A stretch of DNA of 44,835 bases, counting the filler, from Catajapyx aquilonaris (taxonomy: Eukaryota), in NCBI GenBank assembly GCA_000934665.2. It is 2 parts of 2 records of this genome, joined end to end, with 100 filler letters (N's around TTAATTAATTAA, not from the genome) between each part and the next. Parts side by side here need not be neighbours in the genome. Positions count along the whole stretch, not along the records: positions 22,486 to 44,835 come from JYFJ02005876.1; 1 more part is not named here. One strand, written 5' to 3'. The notes beneath the pieces were generated by a model, which was not told the origin of the DNA, made no database searches, and saw only the letters and a list, made by a program, of their open reading frames with translations. Below are positions 807 to 44,368 of the stretch, in pieces. Position 1 is the first letter of the stretch, and every line of letters starts with the position of its first letter. The translations under genes and the position numbers were made by a program.

Positions 807-3749
<2,943 letters not shown>

Positions 3750-5930
3750 CCAAGTAGGACGGACGCGCGTGCAGACAACAGTGGTGACAACAATGGTGGG
3801 GGAGGAGAAGGAGGCCAGGGGGGAAACTTCCTGGCCTTGCTGGCCTGGGCTGGGGCGAGGCAAAGGGCGGCGGCGGCCATGCAGGAAGCGCAGGACTTTT
3901 GGGCGGCCTGTTGAGAAAAATTTTAATTACGTAGGGAAAACAAAAGCCTCAAGACTATTATTGAGTTTGGAGAATGAAAGCGCCCTTCCCCTCCCCCCTC
4001 CTGATGGACTCAACAATAGCCCACCCCAAAATGCATCAGTACAAAAAAAGAGAGGGAGTGAAGACTTTTTGATGCCTCCAGATACAACCACAAGAAGAAA
4101 AAAGAAACGGAAAGGAAAAAAAGTTACAAGAGAAGCAAGATTTTTACTCTGACAAAAAAGTGCGGGTCAAACAGTTGTGACCAGTGCGACGTTCAGTTAC
4201 CTTATTATTTTTCTCTCTCTCTCACTCTCTCTTTATCTCACTCTCTTGCTCTTCTCCTTGACGTTTATTTTCCTCCCCCGCCCCTCCCTTTGTGTCTCAA
4301 GTAGATCACGGTCGTTTGTCGGACAAATGACGGACAGTGTTGCCTGTTTTATTCATTCGGTGTGAAAATAATTCCTCGAACCCCTCCCTTCACTTTAAAC
4401 CATCCCTTATGTTCCGCAATCCCCCCCAAAAAAACAAAAAAAAAATGCTTGCATGCATGTGTGCATATGTAAATCACTACTTTTCAGGAAGCGTGTTTTA
4501 GGCATGGTACAATCCTTCCCCATATTTGTGGCCCCCAACCTTTTGACCCTCGACCCCCCCACCTTTATTTAGGCAATCAAGATGGCTCTCAATAATTATT
4601 ATTCAGAGTAAGAAGAAAAAAGCGTGCACGAAATAAGGAGAGAAAAAAAAATGGGCCATCCACTGCCAAGAATTTCTAAACCCTCCCCAAGCCCCACATG
4701 CCCAGCTTCCGACTCCCCTTCATGCGAGTTTTCATGCAAGCCATGTCCGTCACCTATTTTTTAAGAAAATCAGAAAAGATAGAAACATGCAAAGATGAAA
4801 AAAAAAAAAAAGTATTACACTCAGAGACCAGACACCCTGCTCTTGAATTTTCTAAGTTGGTTCTTTTTCTCGGTTCCGAGGAAGGAGCACGAGGCGACCA
4901 AGTTTTGCCTCCTGCGCCTACCTGGCCGCAAACAATCCCCCCGAGTCCCCCATCAATCAACCGATTTTTGCAACGTCACAGACCTCAGAAGAAAGTTCCA
5001 CCATAGTTCTGCCTTAAGGAGAAACTCTCTTTTTACACAAACCATTGGCCACACCACATTTAAAAAAATAAAAGTAATAATAGTATATTATAAATAACAA
5101 TAATAATTAAGACAGCAGCAGCAACAGCTTCAACAGTCCATATCCTTTCCCAACCCACCAACCGTTGATGTCAAGTCCCATCCAGTTTCTTAATCCACAA
5201 AGTGTTCCTATATAATTTTTTGTTTATGACCTTTCCCCCGATCCCCCCAACTTTTACGAATTGTGGCAGATTCCTCCCTCCTACTTTTACTCACCACACC
5301 ACACACACGACACTACACGACGTAATTGCCACATACATTGTACACACGTGCAAGCGAGCACTGCGCCAAACCACAGGCAGTGCCTCACTTCAGGTCATTC
5401 TAAGGTTCCTAGGACGCAGTCTCACACAACCTGCCAAGTGCTTTAGATACAAAGCGGCTGCCCCGCTGTAGAAGAATGGTTCTAATTTTTGATTTTCTTG
5501 TGTGTCCCACCACCACTCCCTACCTCCCAAATCCGCAAACACAGTTTTTGGGCATGAAAACGAGCAATTCACATGCGATCCTCCCCCCTTTTAACTCCCA
5601 ACCCCATGTAAAAAAAAAAAAAACTTTGTCTATTCGGTCCAGTTGGTTCTGGTGACTTGACTCTTTGCAACCTCTCCAACCAACTCCATGCCATAACTTT
5701 ACCTCCCCCGTCCTTCCAATCTTTTCTGTAAATCCCCCCCCCTGAAGAACATTCAGTGAAAAAAGAAAGGAAAAAAAAAAAAAAAAANGAAAGGAAAAAA
5801 AAAAAAAAAAAAGATGTCTCGAGTGGAGATACAGCTCGGTCCGTTCTTTGTGAGCAGACAAAGTTGGCAAATAAAATATTGAAAACTGTTTACATACACT
5901 AGTTTTAAACCATTTAAATAAAAAGTTGTG
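3750..5930 (+). other. Probable long 3' UTR of groucho
   Basis: Low-complexity A/C-rich non-coding sequence after the stop codon, with AATAAA at ~5068, ~5869 and ~5917. The true 3' end cannot be fixed without RNA data. Confidence 0.55.
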
Positions 5931-16750: not shown

Positions 16751-16815
16751 AGCGCAGTGGTCTAGTGGTTAAGACTCTCTCTTCGTAACCCGAAGGTTGA
16801 AGGATCGAATCCTGA
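16751..16815 (+). other. Degenerate tRNA-like (Pol III A/B box) cassette 1 in the left arm; mirrored at ~18827-18890 on the - strand
   Basis: A-box TGGTCTAGTGG (16758) and B-box-like GGATCGAATCC (16802) at tRNA spacing; stems are degenerate. Confidence 0.6.
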
Positions 16816-16950
16816 AAAAGGAAGACTTCGTTTCTTTTTATCGCTATGGACCTTTGTCTCTGCCTGACTTCATCTCGCATCTTACATTTATTTCTCTTTG
16901 AAGTGCATCTGGTAAATAGGCTAGACCTTCTTGCCACCCACAGTTTCGTT

Positions 16951-17028
16951 GAAGCAGAGCGTGGCTCTGTGGAAACGCGTCGGACTCTCGATCGAAGGGT
17001 CCTGGGATCTAATCCCGGGGCTTCTTCG
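16951..17028 (+). other. Degenerate tRNA-like cassette 2 in the left arm; mirrored at ~18612-18690 on the - strand
   Basis: A-box-like TGGCTCTGTGG (16962) and B-box-like GGATCTAATCC (17005), with a T-stem-like CTGGG...CCCGG. Confidence 0.5.
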
Positions 17029-20000
17029 GTTGTGGTCAGACAAAGAAAAAAAAATTTGCAGCCGACATCTCTGGCCAAGATGGCGACTGTTTCTCCGGTG
17101 AAACATCTTCCGAGTTGACACTTGGAGGATGTGGAGGAGAAGGGGGGAGGGGTGGAGAGGGGGAGGAAGAGGGAGGAGGTGAGAAAATTTTTTTTTTTTG
17201 AAATTTTTAAGACACCTGCTTAATGGGAGGGGGCGGTCACTTTTTTCGAAGGAAAAAGTCTTAAATTTAATCATTCAAAAAATTGAAGAATTCAGGTTTG
17301 TGTGGGCCATCCCCAGCCCCCACCCTACCACTGCCCAAGTGGGTGCATTTACCTTATACCTGGGAGTTCCATTCTCAAACCTATCACCCCTCCAAATATT
17401 TAATCCTACAATTTAAACTATAGATCCTATAAAATAAGCAGCACATACAAATGATTCGGCACAATTTTTAGGTCATTTCCAATGGGTTGTTTCAGGCTGA
17501 CCTTTGACCTGAAAGGCCCTAATATTAGGTTTTTGGTCAGGGGAGAGGCCCCAACTCGATCTCCATCTGTCGGGTCTCTCGTAATGAGACTGTACAGAGC
17601 ACAGTACATAGATATACAGTATATATCTCTCGATGTGAGGTAGTATCCCCTAGCCAAATGTAGCAGTCCCAGTAGGCTGGTATCAGTATGACTGTGACGT
17701 AGGCGAGTGGTCACCTCTTGGGGTCATCAGGACGGACATTCGGCATCACCGTTTCGTGGCATTGCTTTATGGATTAATAAAATAATAAATCCCCACCCGC
17801 TTCTGCTGTGGGTGCTGGAGATGCGCAGATCGTTCGACGCGGTTTTAGATAGGCAAATTTTCGTGTAGGCTTGGTCACCTTCCAGTCTCTTTGACCTTAC
17901 ATATTCCCCCTTTTCCGCCCCCGCCCCGCTACCCACAAGGACAGGCGGACTGCTACAGTACATTTGGCTGCCAGGCTAGGGGCATACCACGGGGCATACT
18001 ATCTTCACATCGAGAGATATATACTGTATATCTATGTACTGTGCTCTGTACAGTCTCATTACGAGAGACCCGACAGATGGAGACCGAGGTAGGGCCTGGC
18101 CCCAGACCAAAAACCTAATATTAGGGTCTTTCAGGTCAAAGGTCAGCCTGAAACAACCCATTGGAAATGACCTAAAAATTGTGCCGAATCATTTGTATGT
18201 GCTGCTTATTTTATAGGATCTATAGTTTAAATTGTAGGATTAAATATTTGGAGGGGTGATAGGTTTGAGAATGGAACTCCCAGGTATAAGGTAAATGCAC
18301 CCACTTGGGCAGTGGTAGGGTGGGGGCTGGGGATGGCCCACACAAACCTGAATTCTTCAATTTTTTGAATGATTAAATTTAAGACTTTTTCCTTCGAAAA
18401 AAGTGACCGCCCCCTCCCATTAAGCAGGTGTCTTAAAAATTTCCAAAAAAATTTTTTCTCACCTCCTCCCTCTTCCTCCCCCTCTCCACCCCTCCCCCTT
18501 CTCCTCCACATCCTCCAAGTGTCAACTCGGAAGATGTTTCACCGGAGAAACAGTCGCCATCTTGGCCAGAGATGTCGGCTGCAAATTTTTTTTTCTTTGC
18601 CTGACCACAACCGAAGAAGCCCCGGGATTAGATCCCAGGACCCTTCGATCGAGAGTCCGACGCGTTTCCACAGAGCCACGCTCTGCTTCAACGAAACTGT
18701 GGGTGGCAAGAAGGTCTAGCCTATTTACCAGATGCACTTCAAAGAGAAATAAATGTAAGATGCGAGATGAAGTCAGGCAGAGACAAAGGTCCATAGCGAT
18801 AAAAAGAAACGACGTCTTCCTTTTTCAGGATTCGATCCTTCAACCTTCGGGTTACGAAGAGAGAGTCTTAACCACTAGACCACTGCGCTACTTCGATACT
18901 GACACTCTCTCCAGCATGTACTTATTGTACAAAGAAAGGGCGCCACAAAATTCAACAATCACCATAAAATATTTGATTTAGGTTACATTTTTTAGCCTTA
19001 TTAGTGTGTTAATAAGTAAAAGAATGTGATAATTTGTGTTTCAGTATATTCTTAAAAAATATTCGTGTGCCAAAAACAAACAAAAAAACCTGTTATGATT
19101 TCCGTAAAAACTGGCCACAGCCGCTCCCTTCCGTTCCTATCCTATTCCAAAAAGCAAATAAAATGAAAGCAAAGCAAGCAAAGAGTTCCAGTCACAACAA
19201 AAATTTCCCCCCTAAAGAGCCGCCGGCTGATAACGGGGTATGAATTATTATTACTGTTGCCCATTTTTTTTGGCTTCCAAAAATGGGAAATTCGCTGGAA
19301 TTGTTGCATACGTGCCCAAGGTGACTACTTTGAAGGTGGCAAATGTTAATGTTTTCATGAACAACTTTTCGATCACACCTCGTACACTTTTAAATTGTGT
19401 TCTTTTCATGACAACTATTCACATGGCAATCAATGATATACATGAGAGCTTCATTGGTACTAAAAAAATAACCAAGTATTATGTACGGTCGGGCACGGGA
19501 GAGGGTCCTGGCCCTTGGGACAGGGGGGGGGGGGTGACACCACGAGTTGCCGTACCGGGTGACAACAACACTAGCGACGCCACTGCTTAAAACATTCGCA
19601 TTCCTGGGCAAGTACTTCAGCAACCACCGGAGTAATAATGGTGGTGCCACCCTTGAATCTTTCTCTATAGCCATCCAAACTATTTCTGACTCCATAGATC
19701 CCAAGAGAACCATCGCGACCTGCCAGCGTCCTCCTCACACCCCTGCCTACTATTTTGATTTCCTCACCCCGATTAAAATCACTCGTTTACTGATCAACCT
19801 TCGCCATAGTTCACCTATAGTTTATCCTTGTTAGGACAGAATTTATTTCGACAGTGAGTAAGTCTGTTCCTGGTGTCATGTAAAAGAGCCCTTCTCACTA
19901 TATCATTTATTATATGCCCACCCTTTGTTTCGCACTCTCCGCCACTCTCGTTTCTTTTTAATCTCCCATATGTCAGACTCAGACTCTCTAGCTGGTTCAA

Positions 20001-22385: not shown

Positions 22386-22485
22386 NNNNNNNNNNNNNNN
22401 NNNNNNNNNNNNNNNNNNNNNNNNNNNNNTTAATTAATTAANNNNNNNNNNNNNNNNNNNNNNNNNNNNNNNNNNNNNNNNNNNN
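22386..22485. other. Assembly gap / contig joiner
   Basis: 44 N + TTAATTAATTAA (22430-22441, stops in all six frames) + 44 N, exactly 100 nt. Confidence 0.95.
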
Positions 22486-22816: not shown

Positions 22817-23163
22817 GTTTTTTTTAAATTTACCCCGTGCCAGGCATCAATGGCCTATTTGGGGGGTGGCACACCACCATCAGTTTTCTCTGTCATTTTT
22901 TTTCTTCAGTCACCGGTGCAAGGAGTCAAGGATGTAGGGTAGGGGTAGGGATTTTTGGGGAGGGAACATGGGGTGCAAGGGCAATGCCTACAACTGGGTC
23001 ATGTGCTGTCCCCCAGGAGGTTAGGTTGCCAGACACCTCCTTGGTGCAGGTCAGAGACCCTCCCGACGCAGGTGAAAGGCAAGTTCCCCAGGCGGGGATC
23101 GAACCTGGAGCCTTTCACTCAGCAAGCCGTGACGTTACCATCACGGCCACCACACCTCCCCTC
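22817..23163 (-). mobile_element. tRNA-derived SINE (~347 bp) with a 16-bp target-site duplication
   Basis: TSD AAGTGGATAATGAGTT at 22801-22816 and 23164-23179. Minus-strand head has A-box GTGGCCGTGATGG and B-box GGTTCGATCCC; A-rich tail near 22817. Confidence 0.85.
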
Positions 23164-23416: not shown

Positions 23417-23740
23417 ATCTAATACAGACACTGCCAAGTTCCATTGGCTGTTTATAATAAAGGGAAGTTATGAGCAGTTAGAAAAACGTGGTCGGAAAGT
23501 GTGCATATGATTTAGATACATGTGCGATTGCATGCGAGTAGAGGCGGTAGAGGTTGTGAATTTCTGTTCACACATTAATAAATTGTTGTTGTTTTTTAAA
23601 TTGCATGGGTCAAGATGGGTATGTTGAGGTGGGCAAATGCATATTTCCCAGCCAATGCAAAGGTGGGATTGCAGATTGGTCGCAGGATATAGGGAATCAC
23701 GGATAAGTGAATGCACGGAGGAACGGGTGGCTATTTAATA

Positions 23741-24283
23741 CAGGGTGGACCAACTTCAAGTGTCGTTTTATAACGGCTATTATTAGAAGAGCTTTAAGAT
23801 TGACGTATCAGCGACGTGTAAAATGGCCCACTTCGGCGCAACGAGATAGAATAGGGTAGAGGCCATAATGGTCGGACATCTTTGAAGCAAAATGGCGGCC
23901 ATCGGGCGGCCATGCCACTTCACGGCAAGAACTTTGAAATTGTAGTATCGCTAACCCTGTTCTCCTCTCCTGCCTCCTGGCGGGACTAGGAAGAAAAGCC
24001 TGTCTGGGGACGTTTTTATTTATTCCCACCCCCCGCCAGGAGGCAGGAGTGTAGACAGAGGAGAACAGGGTTAGAAATACGGCTATTTCAAATGAGCGCA
24101 TGTTCTTGCCGTGAAGTGGCATGGACGCCAAAGATCACGTGACCTTTACGGCCTCTACCCTATTCTATCTCGTTGCTTCGGCGCCATCGAAAGTGGGACA
24201 TTTTACACGTCGCTGCTACGTCACCGCAAAATCACCGCTATTAATCGCCGTTATAAAACGACACTTGAAGTTTGTCCACCCTG
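23741..24283. mobile_element. Tc1/mariner-type MITE (543 bp), largely palindromic
   Basis: TA|CAGGGTGGACCAACTTCAAGTGTCGTTTTATAACGGC ... GCCGTTATAAAACGACACTTGAAGTTTGTCCACCCTG|TA. Internal segments are also inverted (AACCCTGTTCTCCTCT...CCTGCCTCCTGGCGGG vs CCCGCCAGGAGGCAGG...AGAGGAGAACAGGGTT). Confidence 0.92.
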
Positions 24284-24287
24284 TATA

Positions 24288-25231
24288 TGGAAGATACTCC
24301 ACCAGTCATGACGTCACAGGTGAGTGGGGCGGAGCAGGGCCTTGGCGGAGGAAGGGTTATGACGCCTCCCCCTGTCCTCCCCTGGCCTCCCCTGTCCCAC
24401 CGGTTCATTGCAGTAGCCGCGGTTTTTCATTAGCTATTACTGGCAAATCGCTGCAACTCAGCAACAGCTATCGCACGTTTGGCCAGAATTAATGACTTAT
24501 GGACTTTTTGGCTACGTATTCGTCATTCTTCCGACGCCGTACTTTCACCTATACTCCTATAGGCCTGCATACGCGGAAGATAGGGCTGTATCCGCAAGGA
24601 AGGAAGGTTAGGTTAGGTTGGGTTGGGTTGGGTTAGTACACCGCCTACCCCTGTGTATCCGCTGAAGATAGGCTGTATCCGCTGAAGGTAGGTCTGTATC
24701 CGCAAGGAAGGTAGGTTAGGTTGTCTTAGTACATCGTACCCCTACCCCCTGCCACATGAAGCAGTGACAATATTAATATTCCAGGACTAAAATATTAACA
24801 CGCTTGCTCATGGTGATAATTATTATAAGAGACCGGTTAGGAACGAGTCCAGCCAGGAACGAGACCAGCCATGAACGGCGTCGTAGTGTAGTGGTTAGGG
24901 CCTACAAATCAGAGGGTCATGGGTTCGAACCCATGCAGACGAGGTTATTTTTAACCCCCGTTTTCTCCCATTTCTTTTTGTTTTCCTCACATTACTTTTT
25001 ACTCCCCTGCTTACTAATTTATTTACTTTCGCAAACAACTGAGAGAAAACTTGACATCTATTTTAATTGCATGATGCCAAGTTGCCAACACTCTATCATG
25101 GAATAGCGGATAACATCAGCTGCTACTGAGTCGCCTAATACCATAATAGCTAATAGTTGCTGGCTAGCGGCTACGCGCTACGAGCCTAAAGGCAGGCACC
25201 GGTGACGTCATGACTGGTGGAGTATCTTCCA
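24288..25231. mobile_element. Non-autonomous TIR DNA element (~944 bp) flanked by TA repeats, with internal cargo
   Basis: Perfect 30-bp TIR TGGAAGATACTCCACCAGTCATGACGTCAC / GTGACGTCATGACTGGTGGAGTATCTTCCA. Internal GTATCCGC tandem repeats and GGTTAGG/GGTTGG runs (24580-24725), plus a tRNA-like segment. Confidence 0.85.
24873..24950 (+). other. Degenerate tRNA-derived segment (SINE-head-like) inside the TIR element
   Basis: A-box TAGTGTAGTGG and B-box GGTTCGAACCC with T stem ATGGG/CCCAT; shortened anticodon arm; followed by TTATTTTT. Confidence 0.6.
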
Positions 25232-25341
25232 TATATATTAAATCGCGAACGGGTGGGGGTGGGGGGTTTGAATATGATTGGGATCATCACTGGCAATAAG
25301 TCCGAAGCGATTGAGAATAGGGCGGGCACTGTAGGCCGCAA

Positions 25342-25485: not shown

Positions 25486-25716
25486 CTGTAAGATAGCCTG
25501 TATAGTGTCTCCCTCTTGCATAAGCAAGGAGGCAGGGGTAGCATGCACTTTCAGCAATTTCTTGACCATTGTACAAGAAATTAACATTGGACCTCAGCAG
25601 CCGGCAATAAATGCTCTTCCTACAGTCGAACCTCTGACAGAGGAGACATGGACCAATATGTCCACGACTATTGCTACTACTTTTATGGCTACATTATCAG
25701 TATGTACCATACCTTG
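25486..25716 (-). pseudogene. Degenerate SUMO-like domain downstream of the intact unit
   Basis: MVHTDNVAIKVV...GSTVGRAFIA, then LLRSNVNFLYNGQEIAES [4-nt insertion] ATPASLLMQEGDTIQAILQ|gtgag. Confidence 0.7.
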
Positions 25717-26269
25717 AAATATATTTTGACATGTCTTTCTTTAGATGCACCACCCACTTTTGTGGTGGCTTGGATAGTGGCTCCCTCCCGCATTCCCAAG
25801 GAGGCAGGGGTATCACTTCCAACAATACGTTGTCCTTTATGTAGAAAATTCACATCACACCTCAGCAGCCCCTGGAAATTGATCACATCATGACAATAAT
25901 TCCTGAGTAACATTCCATGCAGTCCTGAGCAAGCTATATGACAACACAGCATCCTCAGGCTATCACCAGTGTACGAATAATTCTCAAGTAAAAGATCAGA
26001 GAGATGAAGCTGATACTGACCCAACGGACACACAATGTATCCATCAACTTCTCCAATGACTGCTGCTTCCTCATCCTCGTCTCCCACCTCAGGGAAACGC
26101 TTCCAAAGTTTAACGGGATGCTACCCAGGAGAGGCTTCAAGTCATCCTGTGGATGGAGTGAGGGAAAATATAACACAACAATCAAGCCTAGTTCACACAT
26201 GCTCATCACCTGCTGGGCCTTTTCACGCTGGTCATCTACTTCATCGCTGCCTCCAGTTGAGTTGTCCAT
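25689..26269 (-). CDS. Divergent SUMO-like protein (three exons; 122 aa if the last exon reads to its stop)
   Basis: Exons 26269-26210 (MDNSTGGSDEVDDQREKAQQ), 26146-26021 (DDLKPLLGSIPLNFGSVSLRWETRMRKQQSLEKLMDTLCVRW) and 25871-25689 (GLLRCDVNFLHKGQRIVGSDTPASLGMREGATIQATTKVGG+ASKERHVKIYFKVWYILIM*), with phase-0 GT-AG introns. Aligns by eye to SUMO L.KLM.AYC.RQ|G....RF.F.GQRI....TP..LGME..D.I....QTGG. Confidence 0.72.
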
Positions 26270-27124
26270 GCTGGCAACTTCTCCTTCAGTCCTTCCGTAT
26301 GTGGAAGACTGGAAGCAGCTATATTGGCCCAGCTGCAACCAGAGTGTACCCGGGGCAGAAGAACTTACTTGGAGAGGATCTTTGTTCTGTTTGACAGCAC
26401 AGAATCGAATGCTGGTTGTGCGGGGTTGCCACATGCCACATCTGATCATAATCAGACACCTGGCAACACAGTTCTAATACTCAGCTTTATTTTTTAAATT
26501 AATGAAGGCTTCCATCCGTGGCTAATTTAGCTTTAGTAAGTTTCTAAAACGGAAATTGAGGTGGTTCATTACAGTGTTGCCACGTGCATTCCAAAATGGC
26601 CGGTGGATGGCGGGAGTTTCAAGTGATGGTCATGAAAGGTGACATGAATTTATTATTGCATCTCTTTTATTACAACTCTCTTGATATGAAGTCAGATGAC
26701 CAGGTATCTCAAGTTAATTAAGAGACATATGGTGGCCCAGGCCTGGAGTTGTTCCAGTATTATGTTGGTGCTGTGTAAATGGCATCTCCAATAATGAATA
26801 AGGCATGATGAACCTCCAGGAGCTAACTGTACATATTCAGGGTTCAAGTAACTAATAAAAACTGGTTAGTTTAGGTATACGAAGAAAAAGCGTCAGAATT
26901 CTTAGCAACATTTTATTTGAATTATTCGAATGTTAAAAGAATATACAGAACTTCTTGAAACCTGAGATTTTTGGTTGTGAGTGCTCGAAAACAAGGAAAG
27001 AAAAAACAAAAGTGGCATGGTATTCCTTCCAACAGTCGAGCACATCATCTTTATCTTAATTGACCTTCTTAAGTTCAGCTTCCACAAAACCTAGGGTTAC
27101 AGCATCGAGATTCGGACCTATATA

Positions 27125-27548
27125 CAGGGTGTATCTGAACTCAGTGCCCCGACATATATGACTGCCTTCCTAGCCACCAGAGGATCGATTTAAGTATAGG
27201 AGTCATTATGTTTGGCCGCCGCATTACGGAGATAATTGGCCGCAAACATGTAGTACAAAATATCCTGTCGGTTAGGCCACCCATCGAACCCTCCCTCAGT
27301 CAGAAGGCTCTGGAAGGTCTGGGGGCGGGACTTTGTTGGTTTGTTGCCCACAGGTGGTAAGGCCTCTTTGGCTAGTTACACCAGAAAATTCTATTTAAAA
27401 GTCAGAAGGAGCGATTAGGCAAAAATCCCTAAAGAGTGTATCTCAGTAATGAGGCTGCCCAGACATATGACTCCTATACTTAAATCGATTCTCTGGTGGC
27501 TAGGAAGGCAGTCATATACGTCGGGGCACTGAGTTCAGATACACCCTG
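27125..27548. mobile_element. Tc1/mariner-type MITE, family 2, copy 1
   Basis: TA|CAGGGTGTATCTGAACTCAGTGCCCCGAC ... GTCGGGGCACTGAGTTCAGATACACCCTG|TA, with ~110-bp imperfect TIRs. Confidence 0.95.
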
Positions 27549-27739
27549 TATAGGCTACGTACACAACAATAACTGCAAAATCCGTGATCAAAAATAAATG
27601 CGGTACGAGTGGTGATCCTCATTATTCATAGTTGGTATCAGTTTATTCCTCAACACTTTTATGACAAGGTGCGACCAAATATATACTTGTTCAGGGTTTA
27701 CCATTGATCACAAACCCCAGCCGAACTACAATCCTAGGC

Positions 27740-28125: not shown

Positions 28126-28183
28126 CTGTGGTTGGAGTAGACAGTAGAGAAAGAGAAATGCCAGTGTCCATAATTGCTCTAAA

Positions 28184-28516
28184 AAAAATTTATTATTATT
28201 GATACCCCGTGCTCGAGCCTGAGGCTCGTTTAGGGGGGTGGGCTACCACCATCTGTGGTGAAACTAGTATACTGAAAGTATTTAGTGTGTTTCACGGGTC
28301 GTTAGGAGGGGATGTGCAAAGTGCATGTGCGCTGTCGTTAATTGGTCATTTTGTGAACTCCCCCGGGTGGCTTAGTCTATCGGAAATTGCCACCCGAAAC
28401 GAAGCCAGAGATGGCCCAACTCTGCACGAAAGAAGGTGGGAACCCCGGGTGGGGATCGAACCCGGGACCTTAACTTCCGTGGGCGCGCGCGTTACCGCGG
28501 CGCCACTCCGTCTCCC
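28184..28516 (-). mobile_element. tRNA-derived SINE (~333 bp) with a 13-bp TSD and an (AAT)n tail
   Basis: TSD TAATTGCTCTAAA at 28171-28183 and 28517-28529. Minus-strand head has A-box GTGGCGCCGCGG and B-box GGTTCGATCCC. Confidence 0.87.
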
Positions 28517-28636
28517 TAATTGCTCTAAATTATTTGTAGTCATGAACAATAGTATAGGAGTATAATAGACAAGCGAGGAAATTACTAATTTTGTTCCGCA
28601 GTTGCATGACTTGCTGTTGCTGTACTTGCCACTCAC

Positions 28637-28759: not shown

Positions 28760-28907
28760 CTGGAAATTGGCAACATCATGAGATCATACCAAAAAGTGAT
28801 TCCATGGAGCAAACTGAATGATACCTCAATTAACTTATGCGTAACTGACATGAAACTTAAATAAACCTCAAGTATAGGATATTGTGTCTTAAGCTCAGAA
28901 TACTATA

Positions 28908-29338
28908 CAGGGTGTATCTGAACTCAGTGCCCCGACGTATATGATTACCTTCCTAGCCACCAGAGGATCAACTTATGTAGAGGAGTCATTATGTCTGGGC
29001 AGCCTCATTACTGAGATACCGGTACACTCTTTAGCGATTTTTGCCTAATCGCTCCTTCTGACATTTAAATAGAATTTTATGGTGTAACTAGCCAAAGAGG
29101 CCTTACCACTTGTGGGCAACAAACCAACAAAGTCCCGCCCCCAGACCTTCCAGAGCCTTCTGACTGGGGGAGGGTTCGATGGGTGGCCTAACCGACAGGA
29201 TATTTTGTACTACATGTTTGCGGCCAATTATCTCAGTAATGCGGCGGCCAGACATAATGACTCCTATACTTAAATCGATCCTCTGGTGGCTAGGAAGGCA
29301 GTCATATACGTCGGGGCACTGAGTTCAGATACACCCTG
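28908..29338. mobile_element. Tc1/mariner-type MITE, family 2, copy 2 (inverted relative to copy 1)
   Basis: Same TIRs and TA TSD as 27125-27548; the internal core is the reverse complement of copy 1. Confidence 0.95.
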
Positions 29339-29394
29339 TATAGTTTTCACTGCCGTCGTCATGCCGCGGTGCGCATGAACCGTGCCCAGTTATA

Positions 29395-32400: not shown

Positions 32401-34787
32401 ATATATTTGCCAAAATCAGTGTACAAGTAACTTAGTTCTTGCAGACTCCTAACTTTGGTGGAAAATATTCCTTTTTGGTACCGTATACCTTACTGTACTG
32501 TACAGTACAACTTAACGTATTAGACAATTGAATTCGATTTAATTACACTCTCGTAGAACTATCATGCCTCAAGTCATGAAACACCAAATTTAGTAATAGC
32601 TAAATACTGACCAGATGAGAAGAATGAAATCTGCAATTAATACGAATTGGGTCCTTTTTACTGAAGTGGCTCGAAAGTCTGATATCCCTGTAATGATCAC
32701 TGATCCGCGAATTGTGAATACAGTATAAACAAATGTCGCCGGACCTATTTGAATACAAGTAGAACGTGCGAAATTGCAGTTCTGTATAGCCTTCAGTTGG
32801 CGCGGTGACCAGGTATTTCAGGTCTGATACTTCTGTATTATGCAGCAAGAATACCTGAGTACAGTAGCACTGGTAACAGCCGCTCAAAAAATGTTCATAA
32901 TCTCATTTCCCACAACTCCGGGTATATTGTGACACAGTACGCTAATTAGTGCGCTAATGTGCACTCTGTGTTGCCATGAAGGTATGGTGTTTGTTGCCTG
33001 TTTGATAAGTGCCTCTTTTTCACTAATTTCTGTCACTGTAGGAATCGAGAACCTGCTGGTGAGATGACTGTGTACTTTTCTCATGGGGGTTGCATGCAAT
33101 AAACTATTCTGCACACTTGAGTATTTTATTATTTTGTTGTGTGAAAATTATTTCACAAATTGTGAAATATATCAGCTGCAGAAATAGTGCAAAAATTATT
33201 TGATTGCATTTCAATCGATTTCAATGCCTGATAAGACTACAGTTTCAGGGCCTTTTCTGCTTTTCCACTTGGTCTTTTCTGGACTTTTCCAGCTGTTCAT
33301 TTGGAACAAAATTGCCCAGTATTGCAGACCAATGTGTCAAATGTGTGTGACCATCTTTTAGGATTGGATAATTTAATGTCTCCAATATTCATGCAACCAG
33401 AAATTACTGATGTGACAATAACACTAACTTTCAACAATGTTATTACAGGTTCAAATTAATCAGTAGGCCTACTATTTTGTTTGATGCATAATAAGAGGCA
33501 ATCTATTTTACCGTTGTAATAAGATCCATATTTGGAATAAGACCATTGTTATAGCGTCTGAAAAGTGTGACTTGTGTGTTATTAAATTACAATTAATCCA
33601 CTTATAATAATAATCGTAAATCAGAAGTTATTACAATAACTTCTCAATTATGACGTGGGCTGAACTGGACGAGTCTTGGGTACTGGTCATTTGTTAATGC
33701 ATGTCTTTTCATTTAAGAAAATCTACTTCTGTGGCAGTAATATTATTAAAAGTTCCAGGTTCGTTAGATAATGTAGAAATGTGCAATATGAAGAATAACA
33801 ATTCAGAATGCTCATTCAGCATGAAAGGTTCCCACATTCACAAGTATAACTTAATTGCTTAGGGTAATATTGAGTAATTATTCAGAGAAAAATGGTAACA
33901 TACCATACTATTTAATGCAATGGAGTGATTACTTATTTAAACACAATAATGGAAAGTTTTCAAAGCCCTTAGAAACTTACATGGTATAATAGGATGAATT
34001 TTAAAATACTGTTTTAACTTGATGTCATGAAAAAATATTTAGTTTGTAAATATAAAAATTGCGAAAAATAGTCAATTTTCTCCCTACTTCTGCCATGACG
34101 GATTCTTCAGTCTCCTACTCCTTCTTCCTGTCCACATGGCCAAACCGCCTTAGAGTAGACCTACACAGCTAATAATCTTTAACAGCCTCTTGAACATTTT
34201 GCCTCTGCAAAATCTCCTCATTCTCAATCATATATCTAACCCCATAAACAGCCAACACAACATACGATACCTCTGTAGACAACAGCTTATGGCTAATGGC
34301 ACTCAGCAACTGTGTGAGCGAGAAGTAAGTTTTAATATTAAATTTTTAGATCTTCCCCACGATGGCACTGACGATCAGCTGGAAACATTTTCGTTGCTAC
34401 TAGTTTCTGCCAGAATCAAGTTGCTGATGTCACAAGTCAAAAAAGAAATGAGGTTTAAGGTTTGAATGCAAAACTCTGTAATAATAGTCTACAGCTCAGT
34501 GTATTTTCCATTTCCCACTTGACACACATGGAAGGGACAGGAATACACACATTTGCTTTCTCCTTGTCTGCCTGGAACAACTTGTTCCATAGACAGGCTG
34601 AATAGGTTTGGGCAAGGGAGTGATCACAAGGCTTCCTGACATTTTCCCTTCCGCATCAGGAGTCTCCGCCGTTCTTAAGGCAATATGGTCTGATGAAAAC
34701 TGAACATCATGAAGCTCAGCTTCAATGTCAGAAGCAGGTGGCACCTCAGACTCAGCATCATTCATCTCCTCCTCAACTTCAGCTGCA

Positions 34788-37700
34788 TCAGTTGTCGTGA
34801 CATGCCCCGTCACACGATCCAACCCCACTTCCCACTTCTGATTCCTCAGAAATCCCTTTGGCTGCTTCCAACTCCACAGTCGAGATGGTTTCAGCCGGTG
34901 TGTCAATGGCAGGATCCGGTCCTGCCTTGCCCACTGACAGCCCCAACTCGAGCAGGGACTGCAAGAGGTCAACATCACCGACCTTGGCTCCCACCTCCAT
35001 CACTTCTTCGACAGCAATGACCTCAATGTCGACCAGGGCTTCCCCAAACTCAGTGATGCAGACAATAAACGTCTTTGTATCCGAATCGTCTGGCCTGGCG
35101 CCGCCAGTGGGTGGCATCAGTGAAAACCGAACAGCAACGGCCAGTTGAGGAATGGCTTCCAAGTCCACCGAAGGATGCAGGGGTCGCAGCAGGGTGATGT
35201 CAACAACTTCCTGACCTCCCCAGTCGCAAGACATCACCACCGCGCCCTCAGGAGTGGACGACACCACCTTGACCCTGCGCCAGTTGCCGTCTTCCATCTT
35301 CGCAGCCCAAATGCTCCCAGGAGCAACATCTTCCTTCCCAGGTCCCTCGCTCCTCTCCTCGTCATTCATGTACTGGGCTGCCATGGCCGAATCCACTTGG
35401 TACACCTGCATTAGTTGAAGAAGCATCATTAAATGCACATTGGTTGGTGAAGCAAGATAAATACCTTGTCCTCATTGGCCTTCAGCTGAATCCAGAAAAG
35501 AGTCGGACTCACAAAATTAGTGATGTACGCTCCAAAGTGATGGCCCACCGAGAAAGCTGGCGAAGCAGCCAGATCGGCTGTGACGTCAGGGACTCCCTCC
35601 ACGGTTGTTGCCACTCCCCCTTCTGACGGGCTGGGCGCAGCTTCGGCCAATCCTTCTGCCACAAGCTTGGCTGCCAAGTCCTCGCCACTGACCTTGACAC
35701 GCCCTTCCAGCACCTCAGCCTCTACGGCCTCCTCCCTTCCTGCAATTTCCCAGATTTTATCCACGATTTCAGCAGACCAGGGGGCATCACCAGGTGACGT
35801 CAAGCTTAAGTCAGCCTCCATGGCAAAAGCTGGCACTTCCAAGAATTGCTTCCCTAGAACCCGGAGTGACCCAACCACTTCCGAGTCACCGTAATCCAGG
35901 AAGCGGATCCTGATGCCCTCCTGGGTCACCTCCAGCACACGTGCCCTGCACCAAATTTGGTCAGAGGCACGCAGGGCAGCCGCGCAGCTGCCAACACGCA
36001 GATCCAACTCTTCCGATTCTCCACATGCCGAGTAGTGGGCAAGCAGCTGCTCAGTCTGGGCTGCCAGCTTATCTTCCTTACTTGTCAGATGTATCCAGAT
36101 GGTATTAGGGCTATCCACATGGACCAAGTACACGGAAAAGATGCCTTCAGGTACAACAAACTCTGGGACAGATGGCTTGGGAATTTCCGCTGCCAGTCCC
36201 TTCACAGGTTCCTTCGCTCCACACACCACGGTTCCGCCTTCATCTACCATGCGAACTATTGCTGTCTGGTCATTTTTCACGTCTAGTACGGCAGCCGTGA
36301 AGGCATTTTCCAACAGCATTTCAGATGCCTTGTCACGTTCCAGGCAGCAGCGAATGGCCTGGACTGGTATATCCATCAACTGGGTGGGCACAGCAGCCAC
36401 TTGCTCCCTCCTGACAACCTCCGAGTTGCCATAATCTACGTTAAAGACTGTGACTAATGTCTTCCCAATGGGGGCTTCAGTGACCCTCACCCTTGACCAC
36501 GCATCCATAAACAAGCAGATGCCAATGTTGCCAGGAATTAGGCTGGCACCGGTTTTCACTGGCTGAAAAAAATAAAGAGATGATCGCCATGTGTCAGATC
36601 AATCATGCGTAAAATAACAAAACTATAAAAAATGACAGAGAGGCGAATAGCCGCACCTGTACAGCTGCAAGCATTTCCTGGAGGTTATCCACTGCGGCTT
36701 GGTCGAACTGGATGAAGAAGGACCCATCTTCTTCCTGAACATGGCTGACAAAGGCGTCCAGGTCTTTCCCTATCAGACTCCTCAGGTGGTGTTCGGGGAA
36801 GGGTTGAACTTGGGCCAGTCCTTCTTCAATCATGGTGTTTGCTAGACTCTTCTCTCCAGTTGGGGACAGGAGGTCCACCAGCCACACTTCTTCATGTTTC
36901 TCCACAAATACGCACCTGATTCAGATGCAAGAACCAATTAGTAGGCATAGGACTCATCAGGATTAGACGATGCATATCACCAAAGAAGCGGGAGGGACAA
37001 ATGCCTTGGCATCATTTCCTCCACATGCAATAATTATGTTGCAGATCATGCTTCACCAACAGCCAATAACAACATACATAACGAACCTGTTCAACCTAGT
37101 AGCAACCATGTAACACTGTAAAGAAATGTTAAGTTCTGAGTGGATAGCTGTCAGGATAATTACGCAACTGTCGTATCCTTCCCAAAATGACTCAAAACCA
37201 TTTCGACTTACTTCAGAGCCTTCGTTGGGTGGAGAAGTGCTTCCGCCCTCTTAAGATCAGGCTGCGTCCAGCCCGTCTCCTTTTTGGGTAATACGCCTCG
37301 TACCCTGCACTCTATGGCCTGCATGGGTAGCTTCAGGAAGTCAGGACCCACTCTCTTCACATCCAATGGGTTTGTGAATGTTGCTGTGTTGCCAAAGTCG
37401 ATAAACTTGACCTGAGGAAACGACATATTTTACTCGTGGAAATTAACCGCCCAAGATTCCTCCTACCTGGCATCCATACTGCCTGGTTGCTGCTACAGTT
37501 ATCACACCCCTGTACCACCGTTCATCATCTTTGGCCACCACTGGTGTCCCCACAGGAGGCCGACTCTCGGTGTTCTCTGATAGCTCCATTGACCCGTACG
37601 TGGCTTGGAGGGTAGCCGTCAGTTCTTCAATTATTGTAGTGATGCCTAACTGCACGTGGAAGGACGATGGGGAGTCATACCAACTCACGTACACAATCTC

Positions 37701-40215
37701 AGCATCACCCGCGGAAACTGGATATGGAGCAAAGCTGGTTGTTGGCCTCGGAAAAGTTGCTTTCCGGTTGTTATCATCATCTTGTTGAAAGCCAGACTTG
37801 AACGAGTCTGCCCGCCTGGCAGGTGGTTGTAAATTGGCCATCACCTTCCTTCCATGGTCTGTGTTGGGAATGGTCACGCTCACTACCATCTCCCGAGCAT
37901 CTCCCTCTTCTTCTACCCCCAACACTTGGAAGGCCATGCTGGCATTGGTCATTACGCTCTTGAAGGTTGGCTCAGATATGCCGCGGGGGAGGTTGTTCAC
38001 CTTGCAGCGGACACCCAACATCTTCTGCCTCATGAAGCGAGCCTCCATGCAAAACACCATCTCACGGCTTACTTGCAAAACACGTCCGTAGTCCACCAGG
38101 CGGACACGGATCCTCTGGGTCGACGGGCATTCACTTAACACCTACAATCCAACAAAAAGAGGACCATTGAAGAAAAACCATCAATGCAATGGCGGATTGA
38201 CAACTTACCTTTCCTCTTAAGTAGCTACCAGTTGCAGAATCAAAAACCACCCACGCTTCCCCAACGTGTGACTCCGGAAGTTTCCCGACAACGAAGGCAT
38301 CCGGTTTATACAGGTATCGTGGGTGCCTTGTTAGCTTTTCGTACGTCTCATTCAAGGCTTTGTCTAATGCTGGTAAGTCAGTGGCCATAAACCTGAGAGG
38401 TTGGGCATACATGTAAGGTGGTAGGTCGACCTGGGCAACAAACATCTCCTCCGTGCTTTGAAGCTCTGGCAACCAGGGGACTGGATGGCTCTGCAACTCT
38501 GCAAGGACAAGTGCCTCATTGAGGCACTTATTTCCTTTCAGAATCAGATTTGACACATATTTGCCGTCTGCCACTTCCAGCACATTCATCTCCGATTCCT
38601 TCTCAATCAGCTTAGGAGCCCATTGATCTGGAATAGTTCTAATGGCATCCAGCTCTATCAGTATGGCTGTCTTCGGTGTATCATCATCCATCTTTGGTAG
38701 TACTTCAGCAATGGATACCTCTTCCTTGAATCCATAATCCACCATCCTGACTTGCACGGACTTGACCATAGGGTCTGACATGATCTCTGCACGGTACCAG
38801 GCACGGTCACTTGATGAGCGAGCGAGACATGCTGTACCAGGATGCAGCAGATTAGGACTCAAGGTGTTTCCTGGTGCAACAGCGGCACAGCGCTGGACCC
38901 TCCGCATGAGCCTCTCGAGACGATGCATGTCCTCCAGCAGCTGCATCCAGACACGGTTTTCTTCAATGAGGATGCACACGCCTGTCACGCTGTCCCCTGC
39001 CATCAGTGGCTCGTGCTCTGGGTAGCCAGCTGCGATGCTGCCAGCATGTCCGCATGACCTCAAAAGGTCCAAAACACTTTGTCCATCAGGGAGGTACAAG
39101 GACACCTGATAAACATCATCATCAGCGAGCCGCACAATGTGCATTTTCAATTCAATGTCACAAGTGATCTCTGCAAAATGATTCCCTACAATCCCATGGG
39201 CATCCCTCAGGCTGCAGGGGATTGCAAGGGGCTCTGGTACCAAGAAGTTGTCCGGACAGAAGGCCAGCTGGTGACTAGCGACCTGCTCAGAGTTGCCGTA
39301 ATCAACAAATCTGCACAACAAAAGTAATGTGTAAGTACGCTATTGAGAAGACAGTTGATGCATTGATACTTACCGTACAGTGGTCGGTGCATCCGGAGCA
39401 GAAATTACTATGGCTCGGTAAAGCAAACTATCCTGGCTGTAGCGCGCCAAGACAGGTGAACCCAGTCGAGGAACTTGGCTCACTGTTTCAAGCTTCAAAG
39501 CAGCTAGTTTGGCTCCCATGACATTCAGAGCCACTTCTGAACTGGCCATCTGTACATGGAAGAAGTGGGGTCCTCCGGCAGCTTCAGACACTTAAGCCCG
39601 GTACTCCCCAGCCTCAAGGGACAGGAACTGGTACGCATGTGGCCGTCTAGCGCACAGACCCACCTGCTGGGCAACCTCGCTCAATGGCTTCCCATTTACC
39701 TTGCTGAAGAGCTGAAACACAGGGACACCCTTATGTTGGCCTACAACCTTGTAGCAAAAAAGTCTGTCTCCTAGGGCATCTCGCAGTGCTGTGAAATGTG
39801 GGTCGACCCACACATCCCCCAAAGGCGGATACAGATCGGCAAGGAAGTGCTCCGATGAGAGAGGTCCCTGTTCTAGTCCAGGTTGTGCCTTCCACGGGCG
39901 CATGTTACATACGAGGGCTTCAGTTTCGGTACCAAAGTCAATCAGCCTCACCCTAACGTGCCTCGGATGGGAGGGCACCTCAGGGAGGACTATGCAGCGG
40001 TACCAGACAAGATCCCGGCATCGAACAAGGTAGATCACATCACGCTGCAGGACCAGACCATAGGATGTCCTGGCATCCAATTTGGGCCCAATGATCTGCA
40101 GGGATTGGTGCACATTATGTGCAGTGTCCACATTTGTCTGAATCCAGGCTATGATTTCAGATGAAGGGACCTCCTCACGCCTCACAAATGTCACTCCATC
40201 ATAAGGGCCTGGCAT
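34788..40215 (-). pseudogene. Multi-Tudor (8 extended Tudor domains) TDRD6/TDRD15/Tudor-like gene with an in-frame TAA: a pseudogene, a null allele or a base-call error
   Basis: Exons 40215-39374, 39310-38209, 38141-37467, 37411-37212, 36915-36657, 36562-35465 and 35405-34788 total 4794 nt in frame. Eight repeats of the WYR...V.F.DYG type (LIDFG, FVDYGN, MVDYG, LVDYG, FIDFGN, NVDYGN, FLDYGD, SCDWGG). TAA at 39594-39592. Confidence 0.85.
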
Positions 40216-41099
40216 GGCTCAACCAGTGGCACTCTATACGGGGGGAAATCTGTGGAAGAGACACACAGAAAAATATCAATTGCACCATATGCACTGCAGA
40301 ATGTGTGGGAACAAGTAGAAGTACTGTACTGTACGAGGTCAACTTACGAACACCCTGTTTGCACGCATTTTTAGCCCTTTTCCTTTTTCATACATCTTGA
40401 GTGGTTGCATTTTCAGGGTGAGAGAATTAGCGTGTGTTTGGGCAAGTCTTATCGAATCTTCACATATTATGGGCAGGGGTCAATGCATCGGCCAACATGG
40501 CCCCGACAGAAACAGGGGGCCCCAAATTGGCGAATTTCTATTGAAAAATTTGACATTTAACCCTTTGAGGCCTACGTGCATCATATGAAGATCTGCAGGG
40601 TTTTGATCTGGGCGCTCTCCAGTTTAGACAGAAATGGCTCAATCTGAGGGTCAAAGAGCTCCTACCACCCCGTCGTAGAAGGGAAGCTCAGCTACCATTG
40701 CGTATCAGTTTTTCCGCCTCACAGTGTGAGCTAAGCTTACCCCCCTACCGCGGCGTCAGAACCGGGCGTGCCGTAAGTCTGGACTCCTTGGAGTTTCTGA
40801 TAGTAGAGTGTTGTAGTATTATTTTGTAACCATACTAACAATTTTATAGTTACCTTAAATTGATTTAATTGCATTTAAAGTTAATTGCACTTTTAAAATA
40901 TTTTCTGGAACACCCTGTAGATGAAATATTTTTCGGAATTTTACAATTCAAAAGGACCACCAGGAGTTAAAATGTTAAATATTGAAGCATATTGTTTTTC
41001 ATTAATATCACTCTTCTAACTAGCCTACAATGTTTTTCAATAAACGAGAAAAACGCCATAAATTGGCTTATTATTATTATTATCATCATCATCATTATT

Positions 41100-43188: not shown

Positions 43189-44368
43189 GTGTTAATAATT
43201 TATGGACCTTTGCTTTTCAAGACATTTGATCACCTCCCGGAGGAAATGCAGGTGAAACTGTTCTGGTACCTGTCGACTAGAGACCTGCTGGCAGCGTCTC
43301 TGGTGTGCCGCTCCTGGCACAAGGCAGCCCTGGACCGGCGGCTATGGAAGGAGGCCAGGCTGAGCGGCTGGAGGGTCTGCAAGTGGAGGGCCGGACGCTT
43401 GCTGGAGCAGATGCCACTGCTGAGAAAGCTAATTCTTAGTCAGATAGAGAATCCGGACCAGCTCATTCAGAAGGTTGGGGACGACCTGCCCTTCCTGGAG
43501 GTGCTCACCATACAGCAAGTGGCGCTGGCTGGCTCGGAGCCACTGGCGAATGTGGCCAAAAAGTGAGTCGGCACTGGCTCCCAAAACCAATGATGTGACT
43601 AACACATTTTCTGACAGGTGCACAGCCCTGCGGGAGGTCGTTTTGACTGACGTTAGCATTCCGGCAAGTTTCCAGCATCCACTGGACATCTTCGCGGGAT
43701 GTTCCAAGCTGGAGAAGATCGACCTGGGTCAATACACCTGCCGCCGACGCCAACCAGATGGCACCATCAAGCGGGAGTGGTCCAGCTTGTCCGAGGTCAC
43801 CCTCAGCTGGGTGTCCGGAGACAGCTGCGACCCGGATGCAGAGATGGAAGTGTTGGCCGACAGCCTGAGTCACCTCCGGAAACTGCATATTGGGCGTTTG
43901 GGGTTGCCTCAATCCTGTATGCTCTTGGGTCAATGCAGCCCACTGGAGGAGCTGGACATCTCTGAGCCAAACTGGGACGCTCCGGACGGCCTCCTCCAGG
44001 CGATGTGCAACTTAGTCAGTCTCCGCCAGCTGAGCATGGGTGACACTTGGGAGCGTACCGGATCCGATCTCCTTGCATATTTCTGCGAGCCGCAAGTCGT
44101 TGGGCGGCTGGAGAGGTTAAGCTTCAACGAGAGCGAGACACTGACCGACACGTGCCTGGAGGCGATTGCAAACAATTGTCCACTGCTCAGAGACATTGCA
44201 CTACACAAGTGCCAGAAAATTACCTCGCTCGGCGTGATCGACTTCATCACAGCATGCCAAGCACTTCGGTACATCCGGCTGCGGCACTGCTACGGCGTGG
44301 ACCTCAGCAATGCTCATCTGTGGATACGTGAGCGGTATCCACACCTGCACATCCTGGAGCTGCGATGA
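43189..44368 (+). CDS. F-box / leucine-rich-repeat (FBXL-type) protein; start uncertain
   Basis: F-box motif FDHLPEEMQVKLFWYLSTRDLLAASLVCRSWHKAALDRRLW. Intron 43563-43617 (phase 2). LRRs include CPLLRDIALHKCQKITSLGV and LTDTCLEAIANNC. Stop at 44366-44368. Confidence 0.85.

Follow-up and report, generated by a model that had tools for sequence, protein, structure and literature searches.

SUMO paralogues and SUMO-like proteins

Canonical SUMO1 genes have an intron just before their last few codons (before the ...TGG codons), the tails of known SUMO proteins are 2-11 residues long, and proteins of the RENi family (Rad60/Esc2/NIP45) are long, contain SUMO-binding motifs and finish in a tandem pair of SUMO-like domains that lacks a Gly-Gly. 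Here we describe a SUMO-like unit, termed the focal unit, and three sister copies (A, B and C) in a stretch of DNA from Catajapyx aquilonaris (assembly GCA_000934665.2). The window, by which we mean the whole 44,835-nucleotide (nt) stretch analysed, joins parts of two records end to end, and all four copies lie in the part taken from JYFJ02005876.1. The focal unit ends its SUMO-like core in a diglycine that occupies the place of a former splice donor, and we give a probability of roughly 45% to the view that it is a SUMO1-derived gene specific to its lineage, young and fast-evolving, whose end is reached by read-through.

According to PMC4866545, arthropods are considered to possess no SUMO paralogues beyond SUMO1 and SUMO3, and basal insects keep both. 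Human SUMO4 and SUMO5 are lineage-restricted duplicates that are unproven in maturation or conjugation (PMC4866545, PMC13174819) and are characterized in one of them as ‘poorly expressed and tissue-restricted’ (PMC13174819). In human SUMO3-alpha (PMC9911741), a splice donor is bypassed and intron is read as protein; this happens as alternative splicing at exon 2 and adds 38 internal residues. The human gene treated in the same source has its stop codon in exon 5, and an additional exon that can lie between exons 4 and 5 lengthens the protein close to its C-terminal end, a layout compatible with the SUMO1 intron position given above without matching it exactly.

SUMO4/SUMO5 (PMC4866545, PMC13174819) and the donor-bypass form SUMO3-alpha (PMC9911741) are the nearest analogues in kind of the focal unit. 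Like SUMO4 and SUMO5, it would be a lineage-restricted duplicate; those two differ little from their parents, whereas the focal unit is ~40% identical to SUMO over its better half, retains introns and has lost the original 3' exon. The bypass, too, differs from that in SUMO3-alpha, in that here it would lie at the last coding junction, be fixed by mutation and create both the Gly-Gly and the stop.

A three-exon SUMO1-derived unit

The focal unit lies on the minus strand and consists of three exons, joined in phase 0 throughout, whose 369 nt encode a 122-residue product (Table 1). A sequence-only reading that preceded this analysis had described a three-exon frame with an acidic N-terminal arm, a complete SUMO-like core and the C-terminal end ...IQATTKVGG followed by 19 residues; frame, arm and end were all recovered from the sequence, and the completeness of the core was borne out in part, as set out below. 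The same reading had noted that MREGA stands where SUMO has its acidic patch (M-E-E-E-D), as it does in the focal frame, and that the distance from the first glycine of exon 3 to the second glycine of the diglycine is 41 residues. Our recount also gives 41, one fewer than in SUMO1 by SUMO1 residue numbering, which fits the offset of the ungapped Protein Data Bank (PDB) alignment.

Exon 3, which supplies the C-terminal half, is by its sequence matches clearly SUMO-like and closest to SUMO1. Searched alone, its best Pfam model is Rad60-SLD (PF11976), at E=0.0022 and 18.2 bits, below the 23.8-bit cut-off, and by language-model features it falls among Rad60-SLD/ubiquitin clusters (0.91, 172-180 of 256 features in common). 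Among the 45 PDB sequences that matched at E up to 10, linear di-SUMO2 was the best (E=5e-5), SUMO1 chains were the best single-unit matches (E=0.008, 20 bits) and single SUMO2/3 chains reached ~15 bits. The alignment with linear di-SUMO2 continues past the focal diglycine, pairing ASKERHVKIYFKV with the first residues of the second unit; this continuation accounts for a few bits only.

The resemblance to SUMO1 extends over a gap-free alignment of the C-terminal half (F-L-x-x-G-Q-R-I and T-P-x-x-L-G-M), the helix motif L-x-K-L-M-x-x-x-C-x-R-x-G, and a Gly-Gly placed one residue short of the SUMO1 distance and followed by a pro-peptide. Unlike SUMO1, the unit has an exon 3 that falls below the Pfam cut-off, beta1 and beta2 that cannot be aligned, a valine before the diglycine, M-R-E-G-A for the acidic patch, a Gly-Gly derived from a former donor, a 19-residue tail that is longer than known SUMO tails, and no orthologue found in the searches reported below.

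To score the whole product we used a local SUMO profile made from 60 full-length units cut from multi-unit SUMO proteins that the representative-protein search had found. The spliced product scored 49.4 bits and exon 3 alone 34.1 bits, exon 2 adding 15 bits through the helix motif, whereas the best of 1848 six-frame pieces of the window that do not overlap the SUMO-like copies reached 5.8 bits; the SUMO likeness of the focal unit exceeds chance. The alignment covers profile positions 18-76 of 78 and begins at the helix, with beta1 and beta2 unaligned. Exon 2 is thus only weakly SUMO-like: the helix part alone (...SLEKLMDTLCVRW) aligns to the profile, the rest being putative beta1-beta2, and exon 2 by itself had no PDB match at E up to 10. 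The hydrophobic residues of exon 2 alternate (I.L.F, then V.L.W.T.M) in a way that may correspond to two strands. That the unit derives from SUMO and has its Gly-Gly at the usual distance is supported by the frame and by the exon-3 PDB and profile matches, and the likeness of its core to SUMO runs from the helix through the C-terminal strands without extending to beta1 and beta2.

The 5' end of the unit is provisional, since no stop interrupts the frame 5' of the ATG up to 26473 and a strong donor whose last exon base is 26369 pairs with a possible acceptor at 26309. Position 26308, where the sequence-only reading began the unit, is the base after that acceptor (ttccag/TCT), and exon 1 may on this sequence pattern be an internal exon entered through it. 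The 149-nt intron 2 contains no stop when read in frame with exon 3, giving a continuous 143-residue open frame at 25689-26120 on the minus strand; this frame looks accidental because its upstream part has no SUMO likeness.

Table 1 Features of the SUMO-like cluster and adjoining elements in the window; a slash marks an exon-intron boundary
Feature	Position	Strand	Details
Focal exon 1	26269-26210	minus	60 nt; ATG start; acidic 20-residue arm; donor CAG/GTGATG, donor score 7.7
Focal exon 2	26146-26021	minus	126 nt, 42 residues; acceptor ccacag/; donor TGG/GTCAGT
Focal exon 3	25871-25689	minus	183 nt including TAG at 25691-25689; acceptor ttccag/
Focal exon 3 core	25871-25758	minus	38 residues (114 nt); SUMO beta3-beta5; homologous to sister exons A and C
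V-G-G codons	25757-25749	minus	GTG GGT GGT = GTGGGTGGT; former 5' splice site (GTGAGTGGC in copy A)
Tail	25748-25689	minus	19 residues, partly hydrophobic, plus TAG; read from former intron
Possible upstream intron	26368-26309	minus	60 nt, in frame, stop-free; strong donor CAA/GTAAGT (last exon base 26369)
Copy A exon-3 pseudo-exon	28759-28637	minus	acceptor kept; donor CAG/GTGAGTGGC (CAG/GTGAGT); 2-nt insertion; TAG at 28666-28664
Copy B exon-2 pseudo-exon	28125-28011	minus	frameshifted; same acceptor ccacag/ and donor GG/GTCAG as focal exon 2
Copy B exon-3 start	27869-27798	minus	GLLRFTV...; likeness gone after ~30-70 nt
Copy C exon-3 pseudo-exon	25600-25486	minus	4-nt insertion (frameshift); strong donor CAG/GTGAGATAC (CAG/GTGAGA)
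Miniature inverted-repeat transposable element (MITE)-like, two copies of ~430 nt	27121-27553, 28898-29348	opposite orientation	own terminal inverted repeats; 320 nt at 98%
Short interspersed element (SINE)-like insertion	28184-28516 (28171-28529 with repeats)	minus	333 nt; between A and B; exact 13-nt target-site duplication
Element with terminal inverted repeats	24284-25235		39-nt repeats (97%); downstream of copy C; holds first poly(A) hexamers past focal stop

Broken sister copies and the origin of the diglycine

Four SUMO-like copies lie on the same strand within 3.3 kb, and the focal copy is the sole intact one. Copies A, B and C are unprocessed (duplicated) pseudogene fragments, sharing acceptor, donor and intron flanks with disabling lesions added, whereas the focal copy has no disabling lesion. 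The insertions of 4 nt in copy C and 2 nt in copy A are probably real, as they do not fall in homopolymers. Exon 2 of copy B reads IRYDVKMT..LMDKYCEHR and keeps I-x-x-x-V-K-M-T and Y-C, with a weak match to a SUMO1 chain; this dead copy thereby retains V-K-M-T as in the aligned SUMO1 chain. When the region upstream of copy B was aligned with that of the focal unit, exon 2 alone aligned (59% over 145 columns), and an exon-1 equivalent was not found there. Copy C lies 157 nt downstream of the focal V-G-G and has a possible in-frame acceptor at 25634.

The copies also share a 3' limit. A and C have ~50 nt of intron in common after the donor, where the likeness ends, and when the 3' flanks of A, C and the focal copy were compared in case a fourth exon had been lost, all that they shared was a 28-nt stretch that ends 47 nt past the donor. 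The duplicated segment must therefore have stopped inside this intron, and no copy has a later exon.

In the DNA alignment, the focal GTGGGTGGT falls in the same columns as GTGAGTGGC of copy A and GTGAGATAC of copy C. An exon-final CAG precedes the donor in both sisters and is AAA in the focal copy (AAA/GTGGGT). Because A and C carry CAG/GTGAG in these columns, the V-G-G codons are what was once a splice donor, read as coding sequence, and the tail derives from intron; the 19-residue tail itself aligns loosely with the intron of the sisters. The sequence-only reading had cautioned that the V-G-G codons begin where sister copies have their donors, and the match proved exact to the column. Its ‘sister copies’ do exist, A and C having the CAG/GTGAG donors ascribed to them, but they are broken fragments and not intact units.

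Copy A, if read through, would give V-S-G. A single A>G transition at donor position +4 turns V-S-G into V-G-G and also weakens the donor. Like it, two changes on the exon side (-3 C>A and -1 G>A) are specific to the focal copy and make the donor weaker, so that 3 of the 9 donor positions changed against a divergence of 12-14% elsewhere in the exon. This concentration suggests, from the aligned sequences, that the site is no longer maintained as a donor, and the three changes favour read-through. Among the titles listed by literature searches, none deals with a donor-derived Gly-Gly or with an arthropod SUMO-like cluster.

These observations combine into an origin that is very probably correct in outline: a SUMO1-type parent gave rise to local partial duplications with intron flanks, of which three decayed and one stayed intact, and the intact copy took its Gly-Gly and tail from a donor and an intron. 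The duplication would have been a partial, intron-containing tandem duplication of a SUMO1-type gene, with the copied segment ending ~50 nt into the intron that follows the beta3-beta5 exon, which would have left the copies without whichever exon originally carried the C-terminal end. The donor CAG/GTGAGT of the focal copy would then have become AAA/GTGGGT, the same +4 A>G both weakening the donor and recoding V-S-G as V-G-G. If transcribed and left unspliced at its 3' end, the copy would yield a 122-residue precursor with an acidic arm, a predicted beta-grasp fold, V-G-G at the canonical distance, a 19-residue intron-derived tail and a TAG. As a tag, such a precursor would be trimmed by a Ulp/SENP-type protease, which would remove the tail and expose V-G-G to the SUMO E1 and Ubc9.

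Gene or relic

All four splice sites of the focal unit are intact and neither a stop nor a frameshift interrupts it, whereas the sisters carry at least four disabling lesions in 353 aligned nt by a conservative count. At the rate of the sisters, the chance of zero lesions in 240-300 nt would be 0.03-0.07, and when substitutions alone were simulated at 14% divergence, 3.6% of runs retained the ATG together with an open frame and all four splice dinucleotides. The 114 sites of exon 3 include 69 unchanged and 3 that differ in all three of focal, A and C. Over its 38 codons, replacement and silent changes number 8:8 on the focal branch, 9:4 on that of A and 8:5 on that of C, and eight or fewer replacements among 16 changes would have a probability of 0.03-0.07 under neutrality. 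Taken together these are weak signs, at the level of sequence change, of constraint on the focal copy, and a gene of this kind would be, or until recently have been, under some constraint.

The chief competitor of the gene reading is that all four copies are non-functional leftovers of a local partial duplication of a SUMO1-type gene, the open frame being kept by luck and the Gly-Gly being a neutral A>G. Though we hold it somewhat doubtful, this explanation is a substantial one, and a series of observations weighs for it and against a functional gene. Three of the four copies are visibly dead, and the copies lack the ancestral last exon, their shared sequence stopping ~50 nt past the donor. 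One specific transition suffices for V-G-G, which at 12-14% divergence we roughly estimate at 5-10%. The intactness probabilities precede any correction for choosing the best of four copies, and the constraint statistics are weak once that choice is allowed for; nor does the focal 8:8 differ significantly from the sisters (Fisher p=0.35). Replacements unique to the focal copy strike sites conserved in the sisters as well as in the SUMO profile (Y>H in FLY.GQ, D>A in EGD.I and, within the last strand, I/L>T,T), and focal exon 2 is further from SUMO1 than exon 2 of the dead copy B.

Searches for relatives and for transcript signals point the same way. Among 1.84 billion representative proteins no single-unit orthologue was found. 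Nineteen representatives did reach E<=0.001, but all are 203-2704 residues long and owe their high scores to summing over 2-6 matched stretches per protein, at 34-45% identity. In a word-indexed collection of 5.8 billion clusters, no protein of 33-105 residues shares three 5-residue words with exon 3, no protein of 106-2000 residues gave a score for it, and no gene model containing it was found. Cross-species conservation as a SUMO orthologue was thus seen neither among the representatives nor in the word-indexed searches. Downstream, AATAAA and ATTAAA are absent within ~620 nt past the TAG, the first lying at 25067 and 25023 inside a transposon-like element, and in the region from 19 to 34.6 kb, 100 stop-free frames were compared with Pfam without a match above the family cut-off. 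What a wholly dead cluster explains poorly is the absence of any disabling lesion over 300 nt and four splice sites in the focal copy, set against the at least four in 353 nt of its sisters, together with the over-representation of silent changes on its branch (8 of 16).

A second alternative, which we regard as unlikely, makes the unit one module of a longer transcript. Splicing would then use the donor at 25758 or 25713 and leave the Gly-Gly intronic or internal, exon 1 would be an internal linker exon, and the product would be a non-conjugatable SUMO-like domain of a multi-exon, perhaps multi-unit, gene. The exons are symmetric and in phase 0 (60, 126 and 114 nt), as tandem in-frame modules require, and 5' of the ATG the frame is open, with the strong donor at 26369 and the acceptor at 26309. 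On a rough matrix built from approximate frequencies, which underlies all donor scores given here, the residual donor AAA/GTGGGT scores 6.3 bits and a good donor within the tail (AAG/GTATGG at 25713) 8.6 bits; the former exceeds the 4.6 bits of the exon-2 donor that the three-exon model itself needs, which counts against read-through. Copy C offers both its in-frame acceptor and a strong donor at 25486, and without the SINE-like insert the donor of copy A would lie only 165 nt from the exon-2 acceptor of copy B. The nearest library proteins are, moreover, multi-unit SUMO repeats (P0004-P0022), whose units stand head to tail and in many cases end in GG. These proteins nevertheless differ in that their scores sum 2-6 units at 34-45% identity, whereas the sister units of the focal copy are broken. 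With every neighbouring unit frameshifted, stopped or truncated, a multi-unit product would be scrambled; no other domain-bearing exon was found among the 100 stop-free frames; and the donor-weakening changes argue that the site is not kept as a donor.

More specific versions of a larger gene fared worse. A poly-SUMO gene was rejected because the neighbouring units are broken, A, B and C each having a frameshift, a stop or a truncation. A RENi identity, raised by the sequence-only reading as the outcome if the Gly-Gly were intronic, has in its favour that Rad60-SLD is the best Pfam model for exon 3 and that use of the donor would leave no free Gly-Gly; we reject it because the focal unit is a single intact unit, with an arm of 20-29 residues, whose neighbours are frameshifted or truncated and around which the frames scanned from 19 to 34.6 kb revealed no larger gene. 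Membership in a multi-Tudor gene upstream found no support, all 100 stop-free frames between 19 and 34.6 kb scoring below Pfam cut-offs.

To favour a young gene that ends by read-through is not to favour a working modifier, the candidate role raised by the sequence-only reading. The unit has only some of the defining features of SUMO. The residue before the diglycine, the acidic patch and the beta2/helix region of the product all differ from SUMO, and overall we consider it improbable, on these sequence features, that the product is conjugation-competent. A working tag whose conjugation end arose from a splice site, an A>G in an orphaned donor having both silenced splicing and written the second glycine, would be less probable still.

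Surrounding elements

The region between 19 and 34.6 kb is repeat-rich. The 100 stop-free frames scanned there comprise all of at least 40 residues on the minus strand and 11 picked from the plus strand, out of 189 such frames on both strands; weak matches below the cut-off were to CAMSAP_CH, DUF4264 and NR_Repeat. The two MITE-like copies bracket SUMO-like copies A and B. Between A and B, the 333-nt insert is flanked by a 13-nt repeat in two exact copies, whereas none of 100 shuffles had any. It looks like a SINE because of a stretch resembling a tRNA T-arm (GGTTCGATCCCC) and an A/T-rich end, and ARAGORN called no tRNA in it. A 29-nt stretch similar to this insert occurs at 23086-23114.

Nested inverted repeats with arms of 28-96 nt occupy 23738-24286. 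A hairpin within them (23951-24074) gave a sub-threshold match to Rfam mir-4716 (26.8 bits where the gathering score is 76; E=0.033), and the region is most likely a foldback element and not a microRNA gene.

Further from the cluster, a multi-Tudor gene at 34496-40218 on the minus strand is marked by five long open frames that match Pfam TUDOR (E 2e-5 to 3e-36). The distance from this gene down to the SUMO-like copies, which share its strand, is ~8 kb, and nothing connects them. A WD40 beta-propeller gene lies on the plus strand at 2065-4152, where WD40 (E=2e-22) and several other propeller families were matched by the frame 2940-3749, and a 306-residue open frame at 43448-44368, also on the plus strand, has weak leucine-rich-repeat matches (E=1e-4, below the cut-off). 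Chance tblastn hits at ~16800-18820 fall in mirror order (16993-17025/18647-18615, 17521-17589/18122-18054 and 16866-16828/18774-18818), which points to a large inverted duplication with ~1 kb per arm. Runs of N occur at 22386-22429 (44), 22442-22485 (44) and 5788 (1).

Implications for the SUMO family

If the focal unit is not expressed, it is ordinary duplicate debris, and it then warns that an intact Gly-Gly can come from GTGAGTGG-type donors. Should it be both expressed and processed, it would offer a datable example of how a ubiquitin-like modifier gained its Gly-Gly end and pro-peptide from an intron by a single donor mutation. A lysine stands directly before the V-G-G, so trypsin would leave a Val-Gly-Gly remnant of ~213.1 Da (standard residue masses) on any substrates, a convenient handle for mass spectrometry. 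Were the tag functional, the multi-Tudor gene on the same strand 8 kb upstream would invite thoughts of a germline or genome-defence role, and the product would be a new fast-evolving modifier, with a V-G-G end, an altered acidic patch and a remodelled beta2/helix groove, that may have its own partners and belong to a lineage-specific SUMO-like family. Expressed and processed, it would add an extra SUMO paralogue to those recognized for arthropods in PMC4866545.

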